From Escherichia phage 121Q, in the sequence record NC_025447.1: DNA of 64,000 nt; one strand, given 5' to 3'. Both the position numbers and the translations under genes were made by a program. This document shows, piece by piece, positions 1-64,000 of the stretch. Below the pieces are notes generated by a model, which saw nothing but the letters and a program-made list of their open reading frames with translations, was not told where the DNA came from and did no database searches. Position 1 is the stretch's first letter, and each line of letters begins with the position of its first letter.

Positions 1-5252
<5,252 letters not shown>

Positions 5253-5282
5253 TTAAAAAATATGGGACAGTATAAAAACCTG

Positions 5283-5291
5283 TGCTATAAT
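5283..5291 (+). promoter_or_regulatory. extended -10 promoter element (TGCTATAAT), proximal SSB promoter
   Basis: Member of the recurring TGTG(A/C)TATAATG motif. Confidence 0.5.
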
Positions 5292-5378
5292 GTAAAACGT
5301 TGAAGGAACAATGAAGTTTCTGAAACATTGAAGCCAATTAACAAATAACAAAGAAACCCAAAATCAAGGAAGATATAT

Positions 5379-6431
5379 ATGAAATCTCTAGCTGAAATTC
5401 GTGCACACCTAAAAGCAGAACAAGAAAAAGCAGAAGCTCAAAAGAATGGTACATTTACTGGCGAGCGTAAAGCTGATTCGTTCTTAGCTTTCTGGAACGT
5501 ACCTTATAACGAACCACTAAACCTACGTTTTCTACCAGATGCAGATGAGTCTAACCCATTCTTCTGGCGTGAACGTGACATGATTAACCTAACTTTCAAT
5601 GGTGTAGTCGGTATGCACACTGATAAAGTTACCGTTCAAGTACCTTGTAACGAAATGTGGGTTCCTAAATCCTGTCCGGTTCTGAAAGAAGTACGTCAAT
5701 GGTTCCAAAGTGCGAATGAAACAGGGAACGAAGAACTAAAAGCAATGGCTGGTCGTTACTGGAAGAAGAAAACCTATCTAATGCAATGTTTTATTGCTCC
5801 TGATAGCGTTGCAGTAAAAGACGACATTGCACCAGAAAATCCAATTCGTCGTATTCTGGCTAACAAAGATATCTTTGATAAAGTTAAATCCATCCTGCTA
5901 AACCCAGGAATCAAAGAGTCTCCAACTCACTACGTTCAAGGTCGTGATTTTGGTATTGTTAAAACTAAGAATGGTGGTGGTTATAATAGCTACGACATGT
6001 CTCAATTCTCCATGTCTGAGCGTCCACTAAACGAAGAAGAACTAGCAGCAATTGAAAAATATGGCCTATACAATCTAAATGATTTTATGCCAAAACAACC
6101 AACTCCAGAAGAGTTGAAAGCAATTGAAGAAATGTTCGAAGCATCAGTAAATGGTGAAGCATATGATCCAGCACGTTGGGCATTTGCATATCGTCCAGCA
6201 GGTGTACCAAAACCTAACTCTGGAACTGTTACTGAATCAAAACCAACTCCTGCTCCAGTACAACAAGAGTCAGCACCTGCACCAGTAGCACCTACTGCTC
6301 CAGTTACTCCAGCCCCACAAGCTGCTCCAGTAACTCCAGTCGCTACCCCAGCAGCAACCACTCCTGAAGCACCAAAAGAACAACTATCTGCATCTGCACT
6401 AGTTGCTCGTTTGAAACAACAAGGTAAGTAA
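5379..6431 (+). CDS. 32: single-stranded DNA-binding protein (gp32-like) with Pro/Ala-rich C-terminal tail
   Basis: RFLP motif and His/Cys zinc-site spacing (H...C...C) resemble T4 gp32; AAGGAAG RBS; hairpin terminator directly downstream. Confidence 0.65.
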   Translation: MKSLAEIRAHLKAEQEKAEAQKNGTFTGERKADSFLAFWNVPYNEPLNLRFLPDADESNPFFWRERDMINLTFNGVVGMHTDKVTVQVPCNEMWVPKSCPVLKEVRQWFQSANETGNEELKAMAGRYWKKKTYLMQCFIAPDSVAVKDDIAPENPIRRILANKDIFDKVKSILLNPGIKESPTHYVQGRDFGIVKTKNGGGYNSYDMSQFSMSERPLNEEELAAIEKYGLYNLNDFMPKQPTPEELKAIEEMFEASVNGEAYDPARWAFAYRPAGVPKPNSGTVTESKPTPAPVQQESAPAPVAPTAPVTPAPQAAPVTPVATPAATTPEAPKEQLSASALVARLKQQGK

Positions 6432-6449
6432 TAGTTTTTGAAAAGTTAA

Positions 6450-6478
6450 GGGGCAACGGAGTTTGCCCCGTTTTATTT
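6450..6478 (+). terminator. intrinsic terminator after SSB gene
   Basis: GGGGCAA / TTGCCCC stem followed by GTTTTATTT. Confidence 0.75.
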
Positions 6479-6500
6479 CATGAAATTCAAGGAGCGAATT

Positions 6501-7619
6501 ATGAAAATGACAAGTGGTTTTGCGAACATTCTTAAAAACAGTACTGGTAGTGTTAAAAAGAATACTGGTGTTAGTGTTGGTTTTCATGATCCAGATACAT
6601 GGGTTAGTACTGGTAACTACGCACTAAATTATCGCATCAGTGGCTATTTTGACCGTGGTATCCCACTAGGCAAAGTAACGATGTTTGCTGGTGAATCAGG
6701 TAGTGGTAAATCTTTTATCGTATCTGGTAATATTGCACGTGAAGCTCAAAAACAAGGCATCTTTGTTGTTATGATTGACTCAGAGAACGCATTGGATTCA
6801 GATTGGCTTCAAGCACTTGGTGTTGACACTTCTGAAGAAAAACTTTTGAAAGTCAATATGGGTATGATTGGTGACGTTGCAAAATTCACCTATGAGTTCA
6901 TTGAAGGATATCGTAAAGAATACGAAAATACACCTAAAGATGAACGTCAAAAAGTATTGTTTATTATTGATTCAATTGGTATGCTAAACACTGAAGTAGC
7001 CAATGATCAAATGAAAGCGGGTAACCTTAAAGGTGACATGGGTCATAAACCCAAACAGCTTAAAGCATATATCACAAACTGTGTAAACTCTATTGGTTCA
7101 TTGAACATTGGTATGGTTTGCGTTAACCACAGTTATGAATCTCAGGACATGTTTAACCCAGATCCTAAAGTTTCAGGTGGTAGTGGCTTGATTTATGCTT
7201 CATCTATGGTTATCGCAATGGGTAAATTAAAACTTAAAGAAGATGAAGACGGAAATAAAACTTCCGAAGTAAATGGTATTCGTGCTAAATGTAAAGTCAT
7301 GAAGACTCGTTACAACAAGCCGTTCGAAGATGTAGAAATTAAAATTCCTTGGGATAAAGGTATGGACCCACGCAGTGGTCTACTAGATATGTTTGAAAAA
7401 TACGGTCTAATCACTAAATCAGGTAACCGTCTATTGTATGTTGATATTGTAACTGGCGAACAGATTCTAAAATATCGCAAAGAGTGGATGCGTAATGAAG
7501 ATTCATGTCTTGATTTGGTAATGCATCAATTTAAAAATCATCCTTTGATTGAAGAAGTTAAAGAAGAAGAAAAAGGTGATGAAACTTTTGGTACTGATGT
7601 GGATATTAGTGAGGAATAA
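6501..7619 (+). CDS. uvsX: UvsX recombinase (RecA-like)
   Basis: Walker A GESGSGKS, NHSYE and GMDPRSGLLDM blocks match T4 UvsX; start placed at ATG 6501 behind an AAGGAG RBS rather than ORF-track 6480. Confidence 0.9.
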   Translation: MKMTSGFANILKNSTGSVKKNTGVSVGFHDPDTWVSTGNYALNYRISGYFDRGIPLGKVTMFAGESGSGKSFIVSGNIAREAQKQGIFVVMIDSENALDSDWLQALGVDTSEEKLLKVNMGMIGDVAKFTYEFIEGYRKEYENTPKDERQKVLFIIDSIGMLNTEVANDQMKAGNLKGDMGHKPKQLKAYITNCVNSIGSLNIGMVCVNHSYESQDMFNPDPKVSGGSGLIYASSMVIAMGKLKLKEDEDGNKTSEVNGIRAKCKVMKTRYNKPFEDVEIKIPWDKGMDPRSGLLDMFEKYGLITKSGNRLLYVDIVTGEQILKYRKEWMRNEDSCLDLVMHQFKNHPLIEEVKEEEKGDETFGTDVDISEE

Positions 7620-10939: not shown

Positions 10940-11437
10940 ATGAACGTATTAACACCTGAAAATAATTCTTTTGACATGGATTTAGTAACAGAACATATTC
11001 CTGAAGAAATGTATTGTGTTTTGGATCTAAGCCCAAATGGTGAATCTGATTTTTATTTTAGACATATTCTAAACACCGTATCATTTAATAGTATTAGTGC
11101 TGATCTTCAAATTGGTGAAAAGATTATTCAAGTGCCTCTCGGATGGCAAATTATGTTAGGTGATGAAGAAACTGGTATGGTTGAGATGTGTACAATTGAA
11201 AACATTCTTAACATGAAAGAACCAAAAGCTTTTGTTTACAATCCTATCCGTTCAATGTATCCTAAGTTTGAACCAGTCAAAGTACTACGTGTATTTGCAT
11301 TAACTACAAAGTGGCAGATACCAATGTTACCTAAAAAGAATTTACTATGTGTCCCACTACATAGTGGTGAAAATCCACCATGTGTGTACTTTGCCGATGA
11401 AAACGAAAAAATTCAAGATTTGTATCTAGGAGTATAA
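10940..11437 (+). CDS. hypothetical protein
   Basis: ORF track, compact spacing. Confidence 0.5.
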   Translation: MNVLTPENNSFDMDLVTEHIPEEMYCVLDLSPNGESDFYFRHILNTVSFNSISADLQIGEKIIQVPLGWQIMLGDEETGMVEMCTIENILNMKEPKAFVYNPIRSMYPKFEPVKVLRVFALTTKWQIPMLPKKNLLCVPLHSGENPPCVYFADENEKIQDLYLGV

Positions 11438-11441
11438 AATA

Positions 11442-12287
11442 GTGTTTGATTTCAGTGATATTAAAAATAAGTCGGTCGATGATGATGAAAAACCAACACA
11501 GCATTCTTTTTCTATTGCTGAATTTCTAAAACACATTGACCGTGCTGATTATAAGTACTATAATGACATGACCGAAAAAGAACGAAAAGAGTTTACTCCA
11601 TATACTGTTTTGCGATGGGTAAGCTCTTTAGATGATTCGTTACAAGTAACCTACCCTAGTAGTAAAGTTGAAAGTGTATTTGGAAAATGGAAATCAGGTG
11701 GTAAAGAAGCACTGACTGAACTAGTTACTGAATTAAAGTCTTCAGGGACAAATGTTTCATCAGTAACTAAGTACTGTCATAGTGATTATGATTGGCGTAT
11801 TAAATTTGCAGTCCAATCAAAAGATGACGCACAAAAATTAATATCATCAATGGTCGAATTTGGTGTATCAGGTTCCGAAATTGTTTCATTGGTAGATACT
11901 GAAGTTGTCAAATACCAACTTATTATGCTAAATGATATGGTTAATGATGGATTTTGGGATATGAAAGAACATCCAGAATTAGTATATCAGCTTATGTGTT
12001 CAGTGCATGATATGATTGGTGGACAAGAAATGCCACGTAACTGGTTAAACTTTTCTAAGAATTTCAAAAAAGCAAATAATGAATTATTTGAGTTAATTAA
12101 AAGCTCACAACCTGATACTATATCTACTCAAATGAATGAAGATGAGTACAAAATTGTTCTATTACAGTATGATAAAAAAACATTTGAGACATTTCTTGAC
12201 AATAATGGTTTTCAAGATAATGAAAAGAAATCTATGATGAAATTGTTTAAAGAAGAATGTAAAAAATATGGCAAAGAAATCAAGTAA
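11442..12287 (+). CDS. hypothetical protein
   Basis: GTG start with AGGAG RBS 9 nt upstream. Confidence 0.5.
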   Translation: MFDFSDIKNKSVDDDEKPTQHSFSIAEFLKHIDRADYKYYNDMTEKERKEFTPYTVLRWVSSLDDSLQVTYPSSKVESVFGKWKSGGKEALTELVTELKSSGTNVSSVTKYCHSDYDWRIKFAVQSKDDAQKLISSMVEFGVSGSEIVSLVDTEVVKYQLIMLNDMVNDGFWDMKEHPELVYQLMCSVHDMIGGQEMPRNWLNFSKNFKKANNELFELIKSSQPDTISTQMNEDEYKIVLLQYDKKTFETFLDNNGFQDNEKKSMMKLFKEECKKYGKEIK

Positions 12288-12978
12288 CCAAGTATATACC
12301 TGTAGATTTTGTGATCGTGAATTTAAACGTGAAGAAACTGTAAACACACATAAATGTATAAAACGTGACCGATACGAAGATCGCCAAAGCCGCCAGATGA
12401 TGGAGGCTTTTCGTATATATATGCAATTTATGGAATTGAATAAGTTCCCATTTAAAAAAGGCGTAGAGCCTTTTATTGCTTTTATAAAGTCAAAGTACTT
12501 TAATGATTTTTATAATTTTGCCGAATACTATTTGAATAATAGAGATATTATTAATGTGGACGAGTTTGTAAAGTACTTGATTATCAATAACAAACCAATC
12601 ACGGAATGGAGTACATATAAAGCAAAAGATGAATGGATATTAAAAACGATTCGTGCCGAGCACCCAAAAGAAGCAATTGCAAGAAGTGTTATCTCACTGG
12701 TTGAATGGGCTGAAAATTTGAATGTACAATGGAATACTTTCTTTGAAAATGTAAGTTCTGCTCGTGCAATTGCATGGATAGAGAGTGGTAAAATTTCACC
12801 TTGGATTATCTGGCTTGCTCCTAAAAAAAGTACTAATAAGTTTTTTAAAAAACTATCAAACTCAGAAATTGAATATATACTTAAATACATCGATCCAAGT
12901 TATTTTGAAATCAAAACTATAAAATACAAAAAGGATTGTGATGAAATTAAGATTATGCTATGTGAGGCAGGATTATGA
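12268..12978 (+). CDS. hypothetical protein with N-terminal CCHC zinc finger
   Basis: C-x2-C-x12-H-x-C near N-terminus (YTCRFCDREF...NTHKC). Confidence 0.5.
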   Translation: MAKKSSNQVYTCRFCDREFKREETVNTHKCIKRDRYEDRQSRQMMEAFRIYMQFMELNKFPFKKGVEPFIAFIKSKYFNDFYNFAEYYLNNRDIINVDEFVKYLIINNKPITEWSTYKAKDEWILKTIRAEHPKEAIARSVISLVEWAENLNVQWNTFFENVSSARAIAWIESGKISPWIIWLAPKKSTNKFFKKLSNSEIEYILKYIDPSYFEIKTIKYKKDCDEIKIMLCEAGL

Positions 12979-13304
12979 ATGGAAAAAGTATATATAATAA
13001 AATACCAGAAGGGTATGTACCTGTACCTAAAGAACAAAAATCAAAACAAATATCTCTACTTAGACAAGGATCTATTACTGAAATAACTTTAGATGGTAAA
13101 ACATTTCAAGTTCATGATCCTGCTCGTATTGAAAAAATTATTTCTTTGGTAGAAAGACACGAAGAACGATTTTTCAGTTTAAGTCAAGAGTTGGCAAAGA
13201 CAAAACAAAATTGTAGACTATTAGAGAATCAAATATCAACTTTGACTAATACAGTTAAACAGTTACAGGAGCAAATAAAAAATGCAGGATTCGACCGATT
13301 CTAA
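12975..13304 (+). CDS. hypothetical coiled-coil protein
   Basis: ORF track; overlapping start/stop. Confidence 0.45.
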   Translation: MNGKSIYNKIPEGYVPVPKEQKSKQISLLRQGSITEITLDGKTFQVHDPARIEKIISLVERHEERFFSLSQELAKTKQNCRLLENQISTLTNTVKQLQEQIKNAGFDRF

Positions 13305-13920
13305 ACATTATAGAAAAGCCCGAACTGATATTGACATTGACTTCAAGGATAGTAAAAGCGTAATTGCAAAACTTCCTTGCGTGCGAAGTACTGAAAAAAT
13401 TACGGAGGATGGTTTAATCCCCCATAATAGTGGTGTTCATTTTGATAATATACCAATTGATCCAATAACCGGATTGGCAAGTATACAATATAAAGAAGCT
13501 GAAAGTCTAGGATATCAAAAAGTTGATATTCTTTCACAGTCAGCTTACATGTATGTTCGTGATAGAGAGCATTTAAAAGAACTAATGAATCAGGAACCAA
13601 ATTGGGATCTATTATTAGAACCGGAAATTGTAGAACATCTTTCGCAAATTAAAAAACATGTAACTTTATTAAATGTATGGAAACCTAAATCCATAGACGA
13701 ACTTGCAATGTTTATTGCAATGATACGCCCTGGAAAAAGGCAGTGCCAAAGTATGAACACATGGGACGAAGTTAAAGCCACCATATGGGATTATAGTACT
13801 ATCGGCACTGACCAAGCAGGAAATAAATTACGATATTTCAAAAAGCCACATGCTTATGCATATAGCTTAATGATTGTTGTACAACTAAATGCTTTAGTTG
13901 AACATCTTACTTCTTCTTAA
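13282..13920 (+). CDS. hypothetical protein
   Basis: ORF track. Confidence 0.5.
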   Translation: MQDSTDSKHYRKARTDIDIDFKDSKSVIAKLPCVRSTEKITEDGLIPHNSGVHFDNIPIDPITGLASIQYKEAESLGYQKVDILSQSAYMYVRDREHLKELMNQEPNWDLLLEPEIVEHLSQIKKHVTLLNVWKPKSIDELAMFIAMIRPGKRQCQSMNTWDEVKATIWDYSTIGTDQAGNKLRYFKKPHAYAYSLMIVVQLNALVEHLTSS

Positions 13921-14260
13921 GAGCCACATTACGACGCTTGATGCGTTTTTGTGGCAAATTGCTTAAAGAAACTACTGGACCACATACGAAATTCACCGAC
14001 GGTGTATCGAATCTCTGTGTGTACGGTTCAAATTTCTCCATCTCTTCTTGAAAGAATAGACAAACTGGAATGGTTCTATTACTTTGCCACCACCAATCGT
14101 GTGCTATACCTAACAATTCGTCTTGCATTGAATCATCCATATCATCGAAACAGTAAAGAGTTGTATACTGTTTGCTTTTGATTTTGATGATACCAACAAA
14201 CGTTTTACCATCATACTGGATTACAGTAATGAATGGTGGAATAGTGTTATATTGATTCAT
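13907..14260 (-). CDS. hypothetical protein (isolated minus-strand gene)
   Basis: 117 aa ORF fills the gap between two plus-strand genes; weak SD; palindromic late-promoter-like element just upstream. Confidence 0.4.
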   Translation of the reverse strand: MNQYNTIPPFITVIQYDGKTFVGIIKIKSKQYTTLYCFDDMDDSMQDELLGIAHDWWWQSNRTIPVCLFFQEEMEKFEPYTQRFDTPSVNFVCGPVVSLSNLPQKRIKRRNVALKKK

Positions 14261-14278
14261 ATTAGTTCCATAAATATT

Positions 14279-14292
14279 AGTATAAATTTATA
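14279..14292. promoter_or_regulatory. palindromic late-promoter-like element between divergent genes
   Basis: TATAAATTTATA is its own reverse complement and gives TATAAAT on both strands, about 26-30 nt from both divergent ATGs. Confidence 0.35.
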
Positions 14293-14317
14293 CCTATTAT
14301 TTATGGAAGGAAAAACT

Positions 14318-15295
14318 ATGGCTCATCACGGCGTGTTTATGTACCCTTATAATCAGGAAGTATCATTGGGCAATTTTAATATGCCATATAGCAATGAAAA
14401 ACTAACTATATATAGAGGGGCAAATAATAATTTATCTTTTACTGTTCACAACGCTGATGGAAAATATACTTTATTGAAAGATAATGAATATCTTACATTT
14501 ATGATTTTTGATGCACGAAATAATACTAAACTATTTGATGTTGTATTAGAAAAACAAGAACCCAGTTGGTTATCAGAAAGTGGACAAGCAAGACAAACAT
14601 TAGGAAATAAAAAGAAAGTATATTATGGATGTATTGTTCCAGCAGGAGTTATTCAAGATACCAGTCCTGGTTCAAAATATAGATGGAGCATTACTAAAGT
14701 AACAATGGATGGTTCACTTATAGAACCAACACAATATCTATACACAGGAATGAACTTTGAAGCATCAGCAGAGCTAATAATTTCAGACCAAGCAGCACCT
14801 GTATTTGTCCCCAGTACTGAAATATCAGTTAATAAAAATCCAGCATGGACAACTATAAAGCGTTTATATCATGAACCAATTGGAAATGGTATGATTGGTG
14901 AATATGATATTCTCGCATCAACTCCATTACCAGCACAAATGCAGTTTGGATTGGTAGATGGATTAAGTAGTATTGCAATCTATTTTGATAAATTCATTGG
15001 TAGAATACAGCTACAAGGGTGCTTGTGTAACAACGTACCTAATGATAATGAAAACTATAAATGGTTTATTATTAAATTAGATGGAAAGGATTATATTGAA
15101 AATGGAATTGATTCAGACGGTTTTCCAAAAGAACTTGATGGAATACAAGCATTTAATTTTAAAGGAAATTATATGTGGTTACGTTTGGTGGTTGCTATTC
15201 ATCCCAAAATTGTTCCAGTACCATATGACTATGCTGCTGTCCGAAAAGTGTATGACCCTTTCCTAACAGTACCTAAAATTTTGATACGTAGATGA
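14318..15295 (+). CDS. hypothetical protein
   Basis: Start placed at ATG 14318 behind GGAAGGA RBS (ORF track begins 14252). Confidence 0.5.
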   Translation: MAHHGVFMYPYNQEVSLGNFNMPYSNEKLTIYRGANNNLSFTVHNADGKYTLLKDNEYLTFMIFDARNNTKLFDVVLEKQEPSWLSESGQARQTLGNKKKVYYGCIVPAGVIQDTSPGSKYRWSITKVTMDGSLIEPTQYLYTGMNFEASAELIISDQAAPVFVPSTEISVNKNPAWTTIKRLYHEPIGNGMIGEYDILASTPLPAQMQFGLVDGLSSIAIYFDKFIGRIQLQGCLCNNVPNDNENYKWFIIKLDGKDYIENGIDSDGFPKELDGIQAFNFKGNYMWLRLVVAIHPKIVPVPYDYAAVRKVYDPFLTVPKILIRR

Positions 15296-15312
15296 GACAA
15301 AACTGGAAGGTG

Positions 15313-15321
15313 TGCTATAAT
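15313..15321 (+). promoter_or_regulatory. extended -10 promoter element upstream of primase
   Basis: TGTGCTATAAT 30 nt upstream of the primase ATG. Confidence 0.5.
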
Positions 15322-15350
15322 CATTTGTAAGAAAAGACAAGGATTAACTT

Positions 15351-16406
15351 ATGAACGCTGTACAAAACATAATGGCACAAATTATGAATGATCCAGTACC
15401 TGCGATGGGTACATGGTCACATCACAACTGTCCAGCTTGTGTGTTCAGAGGACATTCAAGGCCGGATACAAAGCACCGTGGTAATCATATGTTCAATGCA
15501 GATGGTTCCGTTTCATATAACTGCTTTAACTGTAGTTTAAAAACTGGTTGGCAACCAGGAAAATATATGAGCAAAGATATGGAGTCTTTGCTCATTTCTT
15601 TTGGTGCACAAGATAAAGAAATAGAATTAGTAAAGTTTTATATTAAAGAAATGGTTGACAGCGGTGATTTTGCTGCACAAGAAACTGTTGCATCAAAATT
15701 GTATGACCGAGTAACAGTACGTGATTTGCCATCAAATGCAAAAACATTTTGGGAATGGGCTTCTTTACCTGAAGATAAAATTCCACAAGAATTTATAAGT
15801 GTTTTGCATAATGTCAATGAAAGAAACCCATATCTGTTAGACTTAGAATTATATTGGTCACCTAATAAAGAACATAAAATGTATGACAGATTTATTATTC
15901 CATATTTCATGAATGGTAAAATTATTGGTTATACTGCACGACATAAATTAAAAGATCCTGGAAGTACATACAGGTTTATAAATCAAGTAAGTACTAATAT
16001 ACTATATAACTATGATTTATTAAAAGATGAACGAATAAAAACAATTTTAGTATGTGAGGGTCCGTTAGACGCAGCATTAATGGGTGGTGTATCTGCTAAT
16101 AACTTTAAATTATCAAACGTACAGATTGATGTATTAAAAGATGCACAGCAAAAAGGTAAAAAAATAGTTATTGTTCCAGATAGAGATAAAGATGGATTAA
16201 TAACTATAGACCAAGCACTTGAAAATGGATTCAGTGTTTCCTTCCCAGACTTTGGTGCTGTAAGAGAAGGTAGTACAATACGTCATATCAAGGACTTTGA
16301 AGAAGCTTGTGCACGATTTGGTAGGTTATTTTGTTTACAATTAATACATGATAGTATAGTAGATGAGCCATTTTATATTAAAGCTCAAACGGATAAATGG
16401 ATGTAA
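15351..16406 (+). CDS. 61: DNA primase (gp61-like)
   Basis: N-terminal zinc ribbon (CPAC...CFNC) and TOPRIM-like block IVIVPDRDKDG, as in T4 gp61. Confidence 0.8.
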   Translation: MNAVQNIMAQIMNDPVPAMGTWSHHNCPACVFRGHSRPDTKHRGNHMFNADGSVSYNCFNCSLKTGWQPGKYMSKDMESLLISFGAQDKEIELVKFYIKEMVDSGDFAAQETVASKLYDRVTVRDLPSNAKTFWEWASLPEDKIPQEFISVLHNVNERNPYLLDLELYWSPNKEHKMYDRFIIPYFMNGKIIGYTARHKLKDPGSTYRFINQVSTNILYNYDLLKDERIKTILVCEGPLDAALMGGVSANNFKLSNVQIDVLKDAQQKGKKIVIVPDRDKDGLITIDQALENGFSVSFPDFGAVREGSTIRHIKDFEEACARFGRLFCLQLIHDSIVDEPFYIKAQTDKWM

Positions 16407-16428
16407 TACATATAATGAGGGAACATAG

Positions 16429-17949
16429 ATGATTCAAAGCACAGTGGATGTGAAACAATATGGGATTAATGCACAACAATACTTATTATCTCAGATTTTC
16501 AGTAATCCTGATTTATATGTACGTTGTAAAAATATCCTTAAACCAGAATATTTTGATAAAACATTTCATGAAAGTATTCAATACGTGCATGATTATGCTG
16601 CAAAATATAGTTCATCACCTACTTTAAAAGATATTGAAGTTAAAGGTGGTTATCAATACGATCAATATGAAGTTCAAGAATTACATAAACAATCAGTACT
16701 TGATACATGTGGTGAATTTTGTCGCCATAAAGCATTAGCTTTAGCCGTTGAAAAAGGAATGGAACTTGTCCATCAGAAAAAATATGGTGGAATCGAAGAA
16801 CTAATCCGAGAAGCAATGTTGGTAACGGTACAGAATGAGTTAGGTTTGGATATTTTTGAAAACCCTGAAGATACAATCCGCTCACTCAGTACAATGCAAG
16901 GGTCATTTAAGAGTGGTTGGGAAACTCTTGATTACAAACTTTTCGGTGGATTTGGGCGTAGAGAGTTAGAGATCTTTGCTGCTGCATCAGGTGGTGGTAA
17001 ATCAGTAGTACTGCAAAATTTAGCAGTTAACTTTGCGAAAGCTGGTATGAATGGTGCATACATTTCACTTGAACTAGCTGAAGAGTTGGTTGCTGTTCGT
17101 ATCTATGGTATGATGACTGAATCAAAACTCAGTAACGTAAAAAATGAAGCTGAAAAGATTGGATTTGCTGTTAAAGTTGAAGGTAAAAACAGTGGTATGT
17201 TGCGTATTAAACGCTTACCTGAATCTGTAACAACCACTGACGATATTGAAAGTTATCTACGTGAATTACAAATTAAGATGGAAATCAAACTTGATTATGT
17301 ATGCGTGGACTATTTGGATCTATTAACTTCTAATCGTCTTGGACCAAATGATAAATCCAATACATTTACTAAAGATAAGTTTGTATCAGAAGAATTACGT
17401 GCACTTGCAACCAAAATGGATTTAACTGTTTTCACTGCATCTCAGTTTAACCGTAGTGGTATGGACGAAGATAAGAAAAGTCAAAGTCAGATTGCTGGTG
17501 GTATTTCGAAAATTTATACTGCTGATAACGTAATTTATATTGAGGCACGAAAAGAAACTGGCGAACTATGGTTTGATTTCCAAAAAACACGTAACAGTAG
17601 TGCAGTAGGTTCCCGTTTGCGTATGTCATATGATATTGATTCATTGAGAGTTCTTGACCACGCAACTACAGTACAACAAATGGAAACCGAAGGTAATGGA
17701 TTCCGTCACAGCGGTGTTTCTAAGATTGGTGGAGGGAATATGGCGTTACCACCCAGCACTATGCAAACATTACGTCATACGCTTTCTGGTGCAGCTAAAT
17801 CACCATCTGTGCAACCTGACAATACAGTAACACTAAATACTGATAGTGCTCCTAACTCTACGACACAAAACGAAATACAGAATCCACAGACACATGCTGG
17901 TACTGATCGTGTTCATGCAATGAAGCAATGGTTAAATCAAAGGAAATGA
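16429..17949 (+). CDS. 41: replicative DNA helicase (gp41/DnaB-like)
   Basis: Walker A AAASGGGKS, RecA-like core CVDYLD, order primase then helicase. Confidence 0.8.
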   Translation: MIQSTVDVKQYGINAQQYLLSQIFSNPDLYVRCKNILKPEYFDKTFHESIQYVHDYAAKYSSSPTLKDIEVKGGYQYDQYEVQELHKQSVLDTCGEFCRHKALALAVEKGMELVHQKKYGGIEELIREAMLVTVQNELGLDIFENPEDTIRSLSTMQGSFKSGWETLDYKLFGGFGRRELEIFAAASGGGKSVVLQNLAVNFAKAGMNGAYISLELAEELVAVRIYGMMTESKLSNVKNEAEKIGFAVKVEGKNSGMLRIKRLPESVTTTDDIESYLRELQIKMEIKLDYVCVDYLDLLTSNRLGPNDKSNTFTKDKFVSEELRALATKMDLTVFTASQFNRSGMDEDKKSQSQIAGGISKIYTADNVIYIEARKETGELWFDFQKTRNSSAVGSRLRMSYDIDSLRVLDHATTVQQMETEGNGFRHSGVSKIGGGNMALPPSTMQTLRHTLSGAAKSPSVQPDNTVTLNTDSAPNSTTQNEIQNPQTHAGTDRVHAMKQWLNQRK

Positions 17950-27206: not shown

Positions 27207-30247
<3,041 letters not shown>

Positions 30248-56991: not shown

Positions 56992-57153
56992 ATGAAAAAA
57001 ACTTGGAAAATATTCACAATACCTGCTATAATGTTGTTATTGGCACTTTTCACACCGCAGAGTCATGTATTGTCTCTTAATATTGTGGAAATAATTCTTC
57101 TTGTAATTCACTGTGTCGTGTGTTATAATTATGTAAAAGGTGATAAAGAATGA
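56992..57153 (+). CDS. small hydrophobic protein
   Basis: ATG 56992 with AAAGGA RBS; C-terminal part of ORF-track 56848..57153. Confidence 0.35.
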   Translation: MKKTWKIFTIPAIMLLLALFTPQSHVLSLNIVEIILLVIHCVVCYNYVKGDKE

Positions 57154-57572
57154 AGTTCTTTAAAATTCGAATTGGTGTAAGTTCTGGTTTATCTCATTGG
57201 GTATTTTATGATTTACCTGATAGTTATACTATTGATGATGTAATTGATTTATATACCGAAGATCAACAATGGGTGTTAGATACCGAAACACATAGAATTG
57301 ATTGTCAAGAGATTAGTGAAGAAGATTACAAGCACGGAAAGCAAGCCATGAAGTATTTTGAAACAAATATCAAAATGCTGTCTGAAAACGTATTTCCTGT
57401 AAAAGAATGGGCAATTTTACTTGCTAATCCTAAAAAACCTGTTAGAATTGGTTATCCAAATTTTCATATGGTGTATCGTATGAATGATAAGCGAGAGCTT
57501 AACTATCAATACGATTACGATTCATCTAAGTTTGGAGTTCTTAAACAATTTTTAAAGGCTTATCCAGTATGA
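57150..57572 (+). CDS. hypothetical protein
   Basis: ORF track. Confidence 0.45.
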   Translation: MKFFKIRIGVSSGLSHWVFYDLPDSYTIDDVIDLYTEDQQWVLDTETHRIDCQEISEEDYKHGKQAMKYFETNIKMLSENVFPVKEWAILLANPKKPVRIGYPNFHMVYRMNDKRELNYQYDYDSSKFGVLKQFLKAYPV

Positions 57573-57904
57573 GTGAAGATAGTAAAGAGTATATTTTACG
57601 TTGTTCTTGTGGCGATAAAATGGAGCATTGCGTTCACATTGCACAATTTGACTTGACAGAGGAATATGGAGATGATAAACTTGGTCAATGTCTGATAAGT
57701 ATGCGTTTAAATCCTTTTTTAAAATGGTATAACCGTGTATGGGTTGCAGTAAAGTATGTTTTTGGTGTAAACGACTATCAATATGTAGAAGCAACAATTG
57801 ATGTTGACATTCTAAAAGAAGTTGTGTTACAATTAGAAGATACTAGAACTGATGAGGTTAAAAAAGAACAAAGAGAAAAACGTACTGATGTGAAGGTTTT
57901 ATGA
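57569..57904 (+). CDS. hypothetical Cys/His-containing protein
   Basis: ORF track. Confidence 0.4.
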   Translation: MSEDSKEYILRCSCGDKMEHCVHIAQFDLTEEYGDDKLGQCLISMRLNPFLKWYNRVWVAVKYVFGVNDYQYVEATIDVDILKEVVLQLEDTRTDEVKKEQREKRTDVKVL

Positions 57905-58095
57905 GTACTGAACTTTATGAAAAAAAGTACTGTACAAATTGCTCAACTGAGTATACAATACAAGGTATGTTGATTTGTACAATATGTCAGTCAAAGAAAT
58001 CAGCAACTTTCATCGTTGATGATAGATTTGGTGATTTGAAACAGTTTAAAGCAAACCGCAATCTTCGTATTTTTAGCAATCTAAATAAGGAATAA
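57901..58095 (+). CDS. zinc-ribbon small protein
   Basis: CTNC ... CTIC pairs. Confidence 0.4.
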   Translation: MSTELYEKKYCTNCSTEYTIQGMLICTICQSKKSATFIVDDRFGDLKQFKANRNLRIFSNLNKE

Positions 58096-58098
58096 TAT

Positions 58099-58527
58099 AT
58101 GAATATCGAACAAACTATCCGTGAACATTCTTTCTTCGCTCCAGAAACTGGTCGTGTTATTGAGAGCGTCAAAATCGAAGAACTAATGGTCAATGTTAAA
58201 TACAAAGAACCAAATGATGAGATTAGCAGTACTTTTTGTGCTCTACGTGCACCATTCCGTAATGAAAAAGCTAAGAAACCAGCATATGTTCTTGCCATTG
58301 CACTGGGTTGTGTTGTAAAACTTGCAGTTGATGAAAATCTTCTGAATATTAAAGTTGCACCAAGCAATGACGATGAAAACATTGATTTGAACTTTGATGG
58401 TTCTCTTGATGAAGATGTATTTTTCCAACAGTCACTTGTTTACGACTTCCGTACAGTGACACATTCTCACATCAAGTTCATTAATGAAATGGTTGAGATT
58501 GTTGCTGAATACGAAGAATCTCTCTAA
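58099..58527 (+). CDS. paralog family member 1 (C-terminal EE-x-FFQ-x-SL module)
   Basis: DEDVFFQQSLVYD motif about 40 aa from C-terminus; terminator follows. Confidence 0.55.
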   Translation: MNIEQTIREHSFFAPETGRVIESVKIEELMVNVKYKEPNDEISSTFCALRAPFRNEKAKKPAYVLAIALGCVVKLAVDENLLNIKVAPSNDDENIDLNFDGSLDEDVFFQQSLVYDFRTVTHSHIKFINEMVEIVAEYEESL

Positions 58528-58538
58528 GTAAATACAAA

Positions 58539-58562
58539 AGCCTCCATTATGGAGGCTTTTAT
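58539..58562 (+). terminator. intrinsic terminator
   Basis: AGCCTCC / GGAGGCT stem plus TTTT. Confidence 0.75.
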
Positions 58563-58580
58563 CACATAAGGAAATGAAAT

Positions 58581-59132
58581 ATGATAGACCAAATTAAAAT
58601 CCTTACAAAGCAAATCACTGATTTTCTTTCTGATAAAGATGGATTTAATACAGAAGTAAAAATGCACGGTGTTAGTGTTGATGTAATTGCACCAAATGGT
58701 AATGTAACAAGTTACGACATGTATGAATTACTTCTTTATACTCTAGCAGTACGTAAACTAGGTAGTGATATTGAACTCAATATCAATACTGATGAAAGTG
58801 GGAATAAAATTTTTGCAATCAACACCAGTGCTAAATTCGATATCAGTACTGAAATTAAAAAAATAAATGAAAGTTTTATTGGCTTTAAGCATGAATCAAT
58901 TCAAAGTGTTTTTATTGGAAAGCAAACTTCTAATAGTGAATGCCCATATTGTGTAATGACTTTATATAAAGATGGAAACTGGATGCGTCAAGATTTAGTA
59001 TTTGCTGAACTTCTGTATGCATTTACACATGAACTTAAAATCGAATTGGACGATAGTGTTTATTGCTTTAAGAAAATTCGAAATATAACTAAAGATATAC
59101 AAACCCAACTTAAAGAATTAAATGATAAATAA
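58581..59132 (+). CDS. hypothetical protein
   Basis: AAGGA RBS; lies inside the paralog array but lacks the clear motif. Confidence 0.5.
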   Translation: MIDQIKILTKQITDFLSDKDGFNTEVKMHGVSVDVIAPNGNVTSYDMYELLLYTLAVRKLGSDIELNINTDESGNKIFAINTSAKFDISTEIKKINESFIGFKHESIQSVFIGKQTSNSECPYCVMTLYKDGNWMRQDLVFAELLYAFTHELKIELDDSVYCFKKIRNITKDIQTQLKELNDK

Positions 59133-59247
59133 ATATACCAGAAATGGTTAACATATCATGTTACTTTCCTCCCTTACATAATAATGATGCGTTATTATAT
59201 TTTCATTTTGTTCTTATTCCCCTTTTGGTACAAAATCATTTTAGTAC

Positions 59248-59274
59248 TGCCCCGATCTTCGGGGCATTTTTCTT
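59248..59274 (+). terminator. intrinsic terminator
   Basis: TGCCCCGA / TCGGGGCA stem plus TTTTT. Confidence 0.8.
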
Positions 59275-59292
59275 ATCTAAAATTGAGGATAT

Positions 59293-59688
59293 ATGAAGAA
59301 CAATATTGGAACTTCAATAATTAAACCACTTTCTTATTACCTTGAAAAATTTAGAAGCACAAATGGTAATAAATTTAATAATATATTTCAGTTCTCTCAT
59401 AAAGAATATATTACAATTGATCATTTTTCAAAGAAACTAATGTATGTAAATGATAATAGTCATATTATTAAATTATCATTCGATATTGAGTTAGATAAAT
59501 TAACATTTACGGAATACATTAATCAAAAAACTTCTTTTTTATGTCAATACAATAGGAAAGTATATAGTAATATTTCTATGTATCTAAATGATGAATATCA
59601 CTTTCAACAATCTACAATAGAAGAAGTATTGTTCAGTACTGAAGAATTAAAAGAACTATATTACTGGTATAATTATTTCACATCTTGA
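59293..59688 (+). CDS. paralog family member 2
   Basis: DEYHFQQSTIEE motif; GAGGA RBS. Confidence 0.5.
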   Translation: MKNNIGTSIIKPLSYYLEKFRSTNGNKFNNIFQFSHKEYITIDHFSKKLMYVNDNSHIIKLSFDIELDKLTFTEYINQKTSFLCQYNRKVYSNISMYLNDEYHFQQSTIEEVLFSTEELKELYYWYNYFTS

Positions 59689-59743
59689 CATTATTGTGGG
59701 TTTATCCTACAATATATGATGATGCTGCATTGAGGATAAATTT

Positions 59744-60154
59744 ATGAGTTTAGATTTACACAATGAACTAAAATATTTTTTAGATTTGGACATATCAGAA
59801 TTGAACCACCACGTCAATCATATGACTAGTACTGTATGGTGGTCTAATGATCAAGACGACCCAATTATCCAACTAAGTGATGAATCGTCAATTATGCGAT
59901 TTTATAAGATTAATTATAAAAAGAACATCAAGATCACATATGTACCATACAAAAACATACTACTAGTCGAAACACTTAATCCAAGTTCTTTATTAAAAAT
60001 CACCGATTTAGATACATTACAAACAAGTGAATCTTTATTCCAACGTTCATTAGTTGATGATCTTGGTGGTATTACTTTTGAAGATATATTACAATTGAAG
60101 AATATGTATAGTGAATTGTTGGAGATTAAAAACACTTTAGTAATGGGGAATTGA
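59744..60154 (+). CDS. paralog family member 3
   Basis: SESLFQRSLVDD motif. Confidence 0.5.
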   Translation: MSLDLHNELKYFLDLDISELNHHVNHMTSTVWWSNDQDDPIIQLSDESSIMRFYKINYKKNIKITYVPYKNILLVETLNPSSLLKITDLDTLQTSESLFQRSLVDDLGGITFEDILQLKNMYSELLEIKNTLVMGN

Positions 60155-60155
60155 T

Positions 60156-60560
60156 ATGGTAAGTTTACTAGATATTGATAATACCAGTTTAGTGCTGGTG
60201 AAAAAAGGTTTAATTCCAAATTCTAAAAAAATTGATTATGCTGTTATTGAAACAAATATTGGAAATATCTGGTACGACTCTGAAAGGGATATTGTGTTTA
60301 GCTGTGTAGACAGTGATCGTTCTGAATGTTGTAGAGTCGGTCATGACGGACAATTTGTTTTTGAATTTCGTTATTGGAAGGACGCAAAATTTCACCAAGA
60401 ACTGGTTGCTTTGTCAAATGAACTATATACAGAAGAATCGTTCTTCATGGCTAGTACTATTAATGATTTTGGTTCAGTTACATTTGAGTACTATAAAAAA
60501 ATATACGCACTATCCAGAGAAGTTATGAAAATTATCAGAACTGCTGAAGGTAAAGAATAA
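60156..60560 (+). CDS. paralog family member 4
   Basis: EESFFMASTIND motif. Confidence 0.5.
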   Translation: MVSLLDIDNTSLVLVKKGLIPNSKKIDYAVIETNIGNIWYDSERDIVFSCVDSDRSECCRVGHDGQFVFEFRYWKDAKFHQELVALSNELYTEESFFMASTINDFGSVTFEYYKKIYALSREVMKIIRTAEGKE

Positions 60561-60561
60561 C

Positions 60562-60939
60562 ATGACTACTATATATGATATTTTGGGTGTTCTGAGTAGA
60601 AATATAGATGATGATTTTGTTATTGTTCAAGATACTAGAAATACATTTCAACTACCAATAGGTTCACCAGATAGGTTAATTTTTAATAGATACTCAAATG
60701 AACTAACTTACATCCATGATGGGATTGCAATTGTATCAGTTTCTATAAACGACTATACAATACGATATGTATATGACTTCAACGATTATTGTACAAGAAT
60801 CCACAGTATTGATATTTCCGAAGAGGAACTATTCCAATTGTCATTGATTGAGAAAAATGTAATAGGAATTACAGAAATTGGTATTATTAAAAAAGCATTA
60901 AACTATACAAATATAAGAATTAATGGTGGGTGCAGATGA
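60562..60939 (+). CDS. paralog family member 5
   Basis: EEELFQLSLIEK motif. Confidence 0.5.
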   Translation: MTTIYDILGVLSRNIDDDFVIVQDTRNTFQLPIGSPDRLIFNRYSNELTYIHDGIAIVSVSINDYTIRYVYDFNDYCTRIHSIDISEEELFQLSLIEKNVIGITEIGIIKKALNYTNIRINGGCR

Positions 60940-61391
60940 ATGTTGACGAAATAAAAAATCATTTTGAAATTGCAATGTCATGTGAATTTGACACACAACG
61001 TGTTCATGACCCGAAAGAACATATACGCATTTGTTGTGAATTGTCAGATGATTGTAATATTTTTATTGGAAAAACCTATGACATGATCGATCTTTCATGT
61101 ATAGATCCATTGGAAAGAAAAACAAAATATTTATATCTGTACAACACAACATCAGATACGATTGCAATACAACTAATATCAACCACAACATCCCACAGTT
61201 ATTATAACATAACTGAGGTTAGTAGTTTAACGTTAACCGAAGAAGGATTCTTTCAACAATCGCTTATTCGTGAAATTGGTGTTAGTTATGATGAGTTAAA
61301 TGTATTAGTAGATTGTTTCGAAAAATTGAGTACTTTTGTATTATCCCTTTTTAATATACAGTCGCAAAATCCAATGGTGGTGAAATGCTAA
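60936..61391 (+). CDS. paralog family member 6
   Basis: EEGFFQQSLIRE motif; ATG 60936 overlaps upstream stop. Confidence 0.5.
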   Translation: MNVDEIKNHFEIAMSCEFDTQRVHDPKEHIRICCELSDDCNIFIGKTYDMIDLSCIDPLERKTKYLYLYNTTSDTIAIQLISTTTSHSYYNITEVSSLTLTEEGFFQQSLIREIGVSYDELNVLVDCFEKLSTFVLSLFNIQSQNPMVVKC

Positions 61392-61825
61392 ATCCAAGTA
61401 AATTTCTCCACTTACTTTCGATAACATCAATACCGGATCTTACCAGTGAAACTAATGAATATCGTGAAGCTGGGGTGGTGTCTATGGAACTCGATACATT
61501 TGACCACAAATGCTATGTGACATATGACCCACCGCGTTATGGTAAAGAACATTCTTCTTTTATTTTTGTATTCGTATACACGGTATATGATAATACAACA
61601 CTTGATGATGTTTGTATTGACACATACGAAATTTGTGATAATATCATAACTGATGACAACAATAACTCATTTGATATGTCACTATATAACACAGAAGAAT
61701 CGTTGTTTCAACTTAGTACTGTTATTGATGCACCATCATTAGAAGATATAAAACAATTTCAAGAACATCTTGACGCAGTTCGTGAGATGTTCTATAATCA
61801 TTATCCAGAAGTAGAGTTCAATTAA
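61385..61825 (+). CDS. paralog family member 7
   Basis: EESLFQLSTVID motif. Confidence 0.5.
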   Translation: MLNPSKFLHLLSITSIPDLTSETNEYREAGVVSMELDTFDHKCYVTYDPPRYGKEHSSFIFVFVYTVYDNTTLDDVCIDTYEICDNIITDDNNNSFDMSLYNTEESLFQLSTVIDAPSLEDIKQFQEHLDAVREMFYNHYPEVEFN

Positions 61826-61839
61826 CTAAAGGTAATAAG

Positions 61840-62100
61840 ATGACTAAAGTAGTTCGTAAACGCCACATGATGAACATGGATGAATTTCGCACATTTGACA
61901 AATATCGTACTATGTTTCGTATGCTTTCACAGGGCCGTCCAATCGTCATTGTAACAGAGAATTACATGTCACCTGAGATTATGTTTGGTAATTATGAAAA
62001 GGTCTTCATGTTGTACGTGAAGCGTGGATTACTTGCAATCAAGACATTAACTGAAGCAACTGATGAAGATATGGATGGTGATAATACCTTTACCATGTGA
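61840..62100 (+). CDS. hypothetical protein
   Basis: ORF track. Confidence 0.4.
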   Translation: MTKVVRKRHMMNMDEFRTFDKYRTMFRMLSQGRPIVIVTENYMSPEIMFGNYEKVFMLYVKRGLLAIKTLTEATDEDMDGDNTFTM

Positions 62101-62178
62101 GGAAATATATGTCTGAAAAGCCAAAAGAACCATTAGATCGTGATGATGATTTTTATGACGAACGATATGGAGATGATG

Positions 62179-62430
62179 ATGAGTGAACATAGTGCTGTGC
62201 TTAAAAAGATTTTAAAGGAACTTGATGGTGAGTTTAATGTCACAGAAGAAGAATATCAGCATTGGAAGAAAGGTTTTGAACAACTAACCGAGTATGATAA
62301 AGTGTTCAATATGATTGGCGTAATTAGCCAGTACTTACTCGGTGGAGGACGTGCAAGTGCTTCAATTCTGGCATCTGCAATCATCTGTACATCACGATGG
62401 TGTGATGAAAAAAGTTTGGAAGATTTCTAA
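62179..62430 (+). CDS. hypothetical protein
   Basis: ATG 62179 with GGAG RBS (ORF track begins at GTG 62140 in a Met-rich stretch). Confidence 0.4.
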   Translation: MSEHSAVLKKILKELDGEFNVTEEEYQHWKKGFEQLTEYDKVFNMIGVISQYLLGGGRASASILASAIICTSRWCDEKSLEDF

Positions 62431-62436
62431 ATAAGA

Positions 62437-62445
62437 TGCTATAAT
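62437..62445 (+). promoter_or_regulatory. extended -10 promoter element upstream of the methyltransferase
   Basis: TGCTATAAT embedded in the 14-bp palindrome TATAATATATTATA (62440-62453). Confidence 0.45.
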
Positions 62446-62482
62446 ATATTATAGTACCTTAACAATATAAAAAGGATTTTAT

Positions 62483-63343
62483 ATGAAACCTATCCGAGTA
62501 CTTTCTCTTTTTAATGGAATGAGTGTGGGATATATGGCATTGCAAGATGCTGGTATCCCAGTTGAAAAATATTATTCATCCGAAATTGATAAGTACGCAA
62601 TAGCTGAATCTCAATCTAACTTTCCTGATATTATCCAATTGGGTGATGTAACTAAGTGGAGAGAATGGGATATTGAGTGGGACAAAATAGATTTATTAAT
62701 GGGTGGTTTCCCATGCCAAGCCTGGTCAGTTGCAGGTAAACAGGGTGGTTTAAATGATATACGTGGGCAGTTATTTTTAGTAATGGTTGAAATTTTTGAT
62801 CATATCAAAAGTCTCAATCCTAACTTGAAATTTCTGTTTGAAAATGTTAAAATGAAGGAAGATTTCAAAGAATACATTAATAGTATTTTAGGAATCACGC
62901 CAGTACTGATAAACTCCCAGCATTATACGCCTCACTTCAGGCAGAGATATTACTGGTACAGTACTGATAAGCTTTTTATACCACCTGCATTATCCAATGC
63001 ACCTAAACTTCAAGATATTATTGAAGATGGTTGGTACACTGACAGAACCGCTTCGTACTGTATAGATGCTAACTATTTTAAAGGTGGTGATTGTAACCAG
63101 TACTTTAATAAATCCAGACGACAATTGGTGTTTCGTGATCCAGTGATTAATCGTCAATATCTATTAGAGAATGGCAAAAGAAATATTGACTATAGACACT
63201 TAAGTGTAGTAGAATGTTGTAAATTACAGGGTGTTCCTGAAGATTTCTTTAAAGTGTCTAGTAAGACACAAGCATACAAAATGCTTGGGAATGGATGGAC
63301 TATGCCAGTTATATCACATTTACTAAGAGAGATATTCTTTTGA
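62483..63343 (+). CDS. DNA (cytosine-5)-methyltransferase (orphan)
   Basis: Motif I region LSLFNGMSVG, motif IV GFPCQAWS, motif VI ENVK; no adjacent restriction endonuclease. Confidence 0.8.
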   Translation: MKPIRVLSLFNGMSVGYMALQDAGIPVEKYYSSEIDKYAIAESQSNFPDIIQLGDVTKWREWDIEWDKIDLLMGGFPCQAWSVAGKQGGLNDIRGQLFLVMVEIFDHIKSLNPNLKFLFENVKMKEDFKEYINSILGITPVLINSQHYTPHFRQRYYWYSTDKLFIPPALSNAPKLQDIIEDGWYTDRTASYCIDANYFKGGDCNQYFNKSRRQLVFRDPVINRQYLLENGKRNIDYRHLSVVECCKLQGVPEDFFKVSSKTQAYKMLGNGWTMPVISHLLREIFF

Positions 63344-63867: not shown

Positions 63868-64000
63868 ATGCCAATTCCTTATGTTAAAATTATTAATAAT
63901 ATTCTCGATTCATGGGAAGATGTTATTACTGGTAAAAAGCAACCATCACCAGTACATGCTTTATCTGGGAAACTTCAATTCAGAATGTCAAACCAAACTG
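63868..64000 (+). CDS. hypothetical protein (3-prime truncated by window end)
   Basis: ATG 63868 after terminator with AGGTG RBS; open to the window edge. Confidence 0.3.
   Translation, partial: MPIPYVKIINNILDSWEDVITGKKQPSPVHALSGKLQFRMSNQT

Follow-up and report, generated by a model that had tools for sequence, protein, structure and literature searches.

Among the T4 internal proteins IPI, IPII and IPIII, small and diverse phage proteins share one short conserved segment, an N-terminal targeting peptide of about 10 residues that the prohead protease cleaves away; the proteins themselves are found in the virion. A different genomic logic is found in the tandem arrays of SUKH/SMI1-KNR4 immunity proteins that occur both in DNA viruses and in loci for polymorphic toxins, in which adjacent, highly diverged small paralogues keep one fold and are thought to bind different protein targets. 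In p32 (PDB 1P32, 3QV0, 3JV1; Pfam MAM33), an N-terminal helix is followed by seven antiparallel β-strands and two C-terminal helices (PMC5828189), a type of fold otherwise known from eukaryotes. Each of these systems bears some likeness to the locus described here, a tandem array of seven small genes at positions 58099–61825 of a 64,000-nucleotide (nt) stretch of Escherichia phage 121Q (NC_025447.1), the whole of which we refer to as the window. The products share an EE-x-FFQ-x-S motif near the C-terminus. We find that they belong to a family that is specific to one lineage, the Rak2-like jumbo phages, with at least 17 copies to a genome, and that each product is predicted to fold as one compact domain with the motif helix in its core.

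Across positions 57000–63000, the window is 99.8% identical in nucleotide sequence to Escherichia phage vB_EcoM_phAPEC6 (hereafter phAPEC6) and 99.5–99.8% identical to phages CRJP21, UB, SP27, JP4, G17 and PBECO4. These close relatives belong to the genus Asteriusvirus in the Rak2-like group and are jumbo myoviruses with genomes of about 350 kb, and every one of their records labels the array genes "hypothetical protein". The seven open reading frames (ORFs) that an earlier note had listed from the sequence are all present on the plus strand and agree with coding sequences (CDS) in the GenBank records of phAPEC6 and 121Q; in the latter, gp80–88 make up the whole array and gp80 and gp83–88 are the seven family genes. 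Member 1 (58099–58527; 142 amino acids (aa); phAPEC6 gp134c) carries the motif DEDVFFQQSLVYD, whose core EDVFFQQSLV is encoded on the plus strand at 58411–58440. It is followed by a non-family gene, described below, and then by members 2 to 7, which correspond to gp132c–gp127c: member 2 (59293–59688; 131 aa; gp132c) with the motif DEYHFQQSTI encoded at 59590–59619, member 3 (59744–60154; 136 aa; gp131c) with SESLFQRSLV at 60026–60055, member 4 (60156–60560; 134 aa; gp130c) with EESFFMASTI at 60432–60461, member 5 (60562–60939; 125 aa; gp129c) with EEELFQLSLI at 60820–60849, member 6 (60936–61391; gp128c) with EEGFFQQSLI at 61239–61268, and member 7 (61385–61825; 146 aa; gp127c) with EESLFQLSTV at 61694–61723. 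Member 6 has 151 aa from its ATG at 60936, or 153 aa if started at the GTG at 60930. From member 3 to member 7 the genes are contiguous or overlapping, with a 4-nt overlap between members 5 and 6. All the motif strings previously quoted are present, but they lie 32–50 residues from the C-terminus rather than 30–45.

To establish kinship among sequences this divergent, we relied on leave-one-out searches, in which a hidden Markov model (HMM) built from six members was run against 220 window ORFs of at least 50 aa with the seventh omitted from the model. The omitted member ranked first of the 220 in all seven cases, with expectation values (E) of 1e-5, 1.7e-4, 2e-7, 1.1e-4, 0.01, 1.9e-8 and 5.4e-5 for members 1 to 7; the best unrelated window ORF gave E of 0.005–0.25. 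Member 5 is the weakest case, though still at rank 1, and is matched at E 4.5e-20 by a 39-sequence profile that includes member 5 itself in its training set. Translated in all six frames, the 64 kb contain 7 matches to the motif pattern, all within the seven ORFs, compared with 0.00–0.01 in shuffled sequences; as the pattern was derived from its own matches, the leave-one-out searches are the unbiased test. Together these results rule out chance similarity and bear out the earlier view of the genes as a real family of diverged paralogues. Pairwise BLAST comparisons among the seven are weak (best pair E 7e-4), and the sole DNA-level repeat is a stretch of 39 nt at 77% identity inside the motif, from which we conclude that the duplications are old. 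Recent tandem duplication is ruled out by this single repeat and by the colinear orthologues found across genera (see below). The N-terminal halves had been described as unrelated in appearance, and at the sequence level this holds: profiles built from them alone place the left-out paralogues at ranks 2, 7, 8, 13, 14, 41 and 89 of 213. None of these is individually significant, although five of the seven falling in the top 14 amounts to a weak collective signal.

The gene inside the array at 58581–59132 (plus strand; 183 aa; gp133c), which the earlier note had found to lack a clear motif, is not part of the family, and cryptic membership is ruled out at the sequence level (HMM E 0.5; hhalign probability 0.3%). 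Its product is conserved, with 70% identity to its counterpart in the divergent Asteriusvirus A4, 47% to that in Klebsiella phage RaK2, and a ratio of nonsynonymous to synonymous substitution rates (dN/dS) of 0.07. A weak match to phrog_4661 is its single outside lead.

We modelled member 3 with AlphaFold2 from a 39-sequence family alignment, obtaining a predicted local distance difference test (pLDDT) score of 91.8 and a predicted template modelling (pTM) score of 0.81. In the model, helix αA (residues 5–13) is followed by seven consecutive strands (21–25, 30–34, 40–45, 50–56, 61–67, 72–78 and 81–87), helix αB (95–104), which coincides exactly with the motif SESLFQRSLV, and helix αC (112–134). 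Each product is accordingly predicted to be one compact domain in which αA, a seven-stranded antiparallel β-meander, αB and αC follow one another. Because independent models of other paralogues in BFVD, from RaK2, GAP32 and the Yersinia phages, superpose along their full length, with template modelling scores of 0.59–0.88 at 13–26% identity, the paralogue bodies have a common fold. The earlier description of a conserved module on a variable body is not supported by these models: on the AlphaFold2 model, the module and the short hydrophobic or acidic segment that follows it are αB and αC of a single domain, and αB together with the start of αC makes up the fold's conserved core rather than a tag that could be detached.

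Conservation within the domain is concentrated in αB, which is N-capped by T-E-E and has an information content of 2.47 bits per position, compared with 0.4–0.9 in the strands. In member 3 numbering, F99, Q100 and S102 are near-invariant: F99 is conserved at 98%, E95 at 87%, and E96, Q100 and S102 at 85%. A secondary peak occurs in αA (F12, 61%). The β-strands retain alternating hydrophobic positions only; between paralogues the sheet has kept its fold and lost recognisable sequence similarity. The products are small (125–150 aa), mostly acidic and soluble, with a median isoelectric point (pI) of 4.72 against a window background of 5.53; member 7 has a pI of 4.1 and a net charge of -21. Six of the seven have no transmembrane-like segment. 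Member 1 and its orthologues have an additional hydrophobic stretch, PAYVLAIALGCVVKLAV, at residues ~61–77 (Kyte-Doolittle 19-residue maximum 1.76), which the other members lack and which may be either a buried β-hairpin or a segment that associates with the membrane. Three relatives (P0047, P0048 and P0049, with TEEEYFQQS, TEEDYFQQS and TEEEYFQAS) formally match E-x-x-Y-x-Q|S, the recognition pattern of the potyviral NIa or tobacco etch virus (TEV) protease. We regard this match as a coincidence, since the position of Y is taken by F, L or H in most members and the model shows the segment as a helix.

The seven genes noted earlier are all real, but seven is an undercount. We determined copy number over the window plus 30 kb of downstream sequence taken from JP4 (47000–77000), a phage of the same species, or ~94 kb in total. 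The 39-sequence profile found no member in window positions 1–58000. In the JP4 sequence it found ten further members within 20 kb, at E 1e-11 to 1e-5, none of which was in the training set, together with two further marginal matches. Each of the ten has a recognisable motif, such as TEEEYFQMSTV, TEESLFQYSMI or SEMFFQLSTV. The first of them begins inside the window, where the N-terminal 44 codons of an eighth member (63868–64000, plus strand) run past the window end. This gene is the orthologue of JP4_CDS0078, from which its 44 translated codons differ at one residue; the JP4 protein carries the motif SEEEFFQRSTII and was matched by the family HMM at E 4.5e-11 without being among the training sequences.

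At the syntenic locus, seven members each are present in RaK2 (genus Alcyoneusvirus) and in A4, and a more distant relative, a 40-kb metagenomic contig (L008), has ~10 members in 9 kb. The orthologues are one-to-one and colinear: members 1, 3, 4, 5 and 6 of the window pair with A4 genes 109, 112, 113, 115 and 116 and with RaK2 ORFs 184, 186, 187, 189 and 191, respectively, and JP4 genes 79 and 81 pair with RaK2 ORFs 196 and 198. We conclude from this correspondence that the expansion is older than the split of the two genera. By tblastn, member 4 is ~30% identical to its RaK2 and K64-1 counterparts over 98% of its length.

Beyond these phages the family is scarce. HMMER, run exhaustively against 1.84 billion cluster representatives, returned 23 matches at E <=1e-3, all uncharacterised, and when 5.8 billion sequences were searched twice by word seeding, the only proteins to come up were from Asteriusvirus-type contigs or E. 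coli assemblies carrying them; a wider distribution can therefore be discounted. A Foldseek search of BFVD likewise returned only uncharacterised proteins, from RaK2, Yersinia phages fHe-Yen9-03/04, Cronobacter phage GAP32 and Pectobacterium phage CBB. Sequence searches of Pfam, PADLOC and the PDB yielded no matching described domain, in line with the earlier failure to recognise one; PADLOC-DB gave just scattered single-member matches at E ~1e-3 or weaker among 39 members. In PHROGs, each window paralogue has its own entry (phrog_23322, 33313, 24941, 24510, 36084, 30841 and 30548), all of "unknown function", with weak cross-matches via the C-terminus to phrog_17453, 27549, 21500, 24321 and 13866. 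These entries are the same proteins or their Rak2-like relatives, divided into many small unlinked groups with no record of the superfamily relationship, the common fold or the copy number. Our literature searches found no paper describing the family or its expression timing. One metagenomic relative (P0044, 115 aa) aligns through its residues 9–33 with the final 25 positions of Pfam RecQ-1-like_HTH (E 3.7e-12), and its C-terminal ~47 residues, from the motif to the end, are identical to those of RaK2 ORF184. It is a chimeric gene call, likely the result of a deletion or an artefact of assembly, and as the sole match occurs in this one-off chimera, we set RecQ-1-like_HTH aside as an uninformative clue to domain fusion.

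Comparison with phage WPEC5 (~83% DNA identity) gave dN/dS values of 0.08, 0.16, 0.27, 0.17, 0.60, 0.30 and 0.23 for members 1 to 7, and from this range we conclude that all are maintained as proteins under purifying selection; member 6 is 49% identical to its WPEC5 counterpart in aa sequence. At the greater distance of A4, members 2–7 show 25–33% protein identity (member 2, 31% to A4_111), whereas flanking non-family genes show 65–95%. On this basis positions 59293–61825, compared with positions 4164–7053 of the A4 locus, form a hypervariable island between conserved flanks. Member 1 is the slowest-evolving copy, at 71% identity to A4_109 and 48% to RaK2 ORF184. Between paralogues 4 and 5, RaK2 (locus positions 6401–6814), K64-1 and A4 (locus positions 5413–5823) have a gene for a Pth2-like peptidyl-tRNA hydrolase, which is not at that position in the window phage. 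The family HMM gives no match to it, and we therefore regard it as an insertion and not a relative, consistent with an accessory hot-spot.

Several features of the surroundings bear on expression. A GC-rich terminator-like hairpin, AAAAGCCTCCATTATGGAGGCTTTT, lies 3′ of member 1 at 58537–58560, and an intrinsic-terminator-like hairpin, TGCCCCGATCTTCGGGGCA, followed by a T-run, lies 3′ of the 58581 gene at 59248–59275 on the plus strand; both positions carry a terminator annotation in G17. The 56-nt gap before member 3 contains a candidate σ70-like promoter, TTGACA-17-TACAAT (59685–59713, plus strand; 11/12 consensus match), and then a GAGGA Shine-Dalgarno sequence and the member 3 ATG. The equivalent region of phage CBB, with short hypothetical ORFs, RpoD-like promoters and a sigma factor, has been proposed to serve early expression and host takeover (PMC5259590). 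JP4 has a sigma-factor gene 28 kb downstream on the same strand (locus 28265–29230), past the family copies, and at locus 11300–16800 family copies stand among seven tRNA genes (Gly, Ser, Arg, Ser, Ser, Met, Thr) and an HNH endonuclease gene. In the literature we searched, no transcriptome of this group of phages came up.

Among the neighbours, a Dcm-type C-5 cytosine DNA methyltransferase gene at 62483–63343 is the only one with a Pfam domain (DNA_methylase, E 4.6e-38); its A4 counterpart is longer, at 1899 nt compared with 861 nt. Upstream, the gene at 57569–57904 (111 aa) has orthologues labelled "virion structural protein" in JP4 and RaK2 (ORF182), and its phAPEC6 counterpart, gp135c, is not in the virion mass spectrometry (MS) table. 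A 50-codon ORF at 59144–59296 (JP4 CDS0066) overlaps the hairpin at 59248–59275; its translation is a hydrophobic peptide of low complexity, and it is unlikely to be a gene. The G17 orthologue of member 1 (positions 2100–2681 of the G17 locus) is annotated at 582 nt compared with 429 nt and as "partially similar to 121Q gp80"; the match in G17 exceeds the query in length by 156 bases, the result of an indel located 3′ in member 1.

We tentatively favour a reading, which we hold at a little short of an even chance, in which the family supplies early, cytoplasmic, diversified binders or inhibitors of host factors. Host RNA polymerase would transcribe the genes early, and the products would act in the cytoplasm, each copy engaging a different host target, whether a defence or a housekeeping factor, through the variable face of its sheet. 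The conserved helices would hold the scaffold or touch a common partner, and such a partner may dock on the conserved helix. The effector role suggested in the earlier note stands in part: the presumed early region and the hypervariability make a host-interaction repertoire plausible, while the packaged-protein option is contradicted by the evidence below. On the question of anti-defence activity, the fold search gave solely uncharacterised Rak2-like phage proteins. The SUKH arrays provide a parallel in genomic logic, yet neither a profile match to SUKH/SMI1-KNR4 nor the SUKH fold was found in the family. Several points weigh against the reading we favour. The low identity of orthologues could reflect recombinational replacement of cassettes rather than fast change in place; the acidity is modest, at a median pI of 4.72 against 5.53; and the promoters are consensus matches, of which 63 were found in the region against 51 expected. 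Conservation of the polar residues E95, E96, Q100 and S102 at 85–87% exceeds what a purely structural role would need and hints at a common ligand or partner. Our literature searches found no transcriptome, interaction or phenotype data on any member.

The conservation of these polar residues is the starting point of the main rival, an adaptor model that we consider rather unlikely, in which one common hub, of host or phage, docks on an exposed surface of αB and the variable sheet recruits differing clients to it. The polar positions of αB, like F99, are strongly conserved across otherwise dissimilar paralogues, αA has its secondary peak at F12, and in p32, which has the same order of elements, αB forms an intermolecular coiled-coil with αA of the neighbouring subunit (PMC5828189). 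However, αB belongs to a confidently packed single domain, the T-E-E at its N-terminus and the F/Φ/[TL]/[VI] spacing would also fit a structural capping and packing helix, a linked-trimer model has no confident inter-subunit arrangement (pTM 0.35), and no partner is known. The resemblance to p32 also raises the question of true remote homology to p32/gC1qBP/Mam33, acidic doughnut-shaped trimers that here would chaperone host proteins that are basic and bind nucleic acids, or act as decoys for them. We doubt this strongly. The best Foldseek match is not significant (E 0.08), none of 39 members matches Pfam MAM33 at E <=10, and hhalign of a 46-sequence family profile against human p32 (1p32_A) gives a probability of 0.09%. 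Three linked copies, modelled with a 14-row alignment and no multimer model, reached pTM 0.35 and pLDDT 72 in what is a crude test on a shallow alignment; each domain refolds, and their mutual placement carries no confidence. Moreover, p32 has ~210 aa and is eukaryotic and mostly mitochondrial, whereas the family proteins have 125–150 aa and are found only in phages. With no support from the Foldseek, MAM33, hhalign and linked-copy tests, we describe the predicted topology as p32-like and make no claim of homology. Similarly improbable, in our judgement, is the most elaborate combination of these ideas, a phage-only superfamily of the p32/Mam33-type α-β7-α2 fold whose at least 17 hypervariable early copies would each neutralise a different defence or housekeeping protein of the host, with the EE-x-FFQ-x-S helix coupling all of them to one hub of host or phage.

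The conserved E-E...Q..S...D could also be the active or metal-binding site of a small enzyme family. We judge this very improbable: at least 17 paralogues per genome with a hypervariable remainder would be atypical of enzymes, the profile searches turned up no similarity to an enzyme family, and the conserved positions are strung along a single short helix instead of converging from several elements. We give still less weight, and next to no credence, to the proposal of packaged internal or ejected proteins modelled on those of T4, with the conserved segment as a capsid-targeting or processing signal or, in a variant, a protease site. The neighbouring gene at 57569 is labelled as a virion structural protein in two records, as noted above, and in some relatives the stretch TEEEYFQ|QS is a formal match to the TEV-type ExxYxQ|S. 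The T4 targeting sequence, however, is N-terminal; no such N-terminal peptide was found in the family, whose only conserved segment is near the C-terminus and is modelled as a helix within a compact domain (pLDDT >90), not an exposed linker. The genes also lie in the presumed early region and not with late genes. The phAPEC6 virion does have an inner body and many uncharacterised proteins, but none of gp127c–gp134c is among its 62 MS-detected proteins (PMC7247149), and the RaK2 record, which labels ORF175 and ORF182 as structural, so labels no family orthologue.

Expanded families of small early-protein paralogues are familiar in large phages, and the CBB paper lists 22 paralogous ORFs (PMC5259590). 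The family described here, with its motif, fold and size, is not in Pfam or in the literature we found, and PHROGs keeps the window copies apart. More than 80% of the genes of jumbo phages lack a known function (PMC7247149). One structurally defined family now accounts for at least 17 of the "hypothetical proteins" in each genome, or ~7 kb of coding sequence; it can be recognised by its motif, has a fold modelled with confidence and includes a hypervariable island that lies between conserved genes. The tempting reading of the products as packaged effectors with a targeting tag is removed, and the family offers a tractable target set in which host-takeover or anti-defence functions may be sought, in therapeutic coliphages as well as in phages of Klebsiella (phAPEC6, Sharanji, RaK2 and K64-1).

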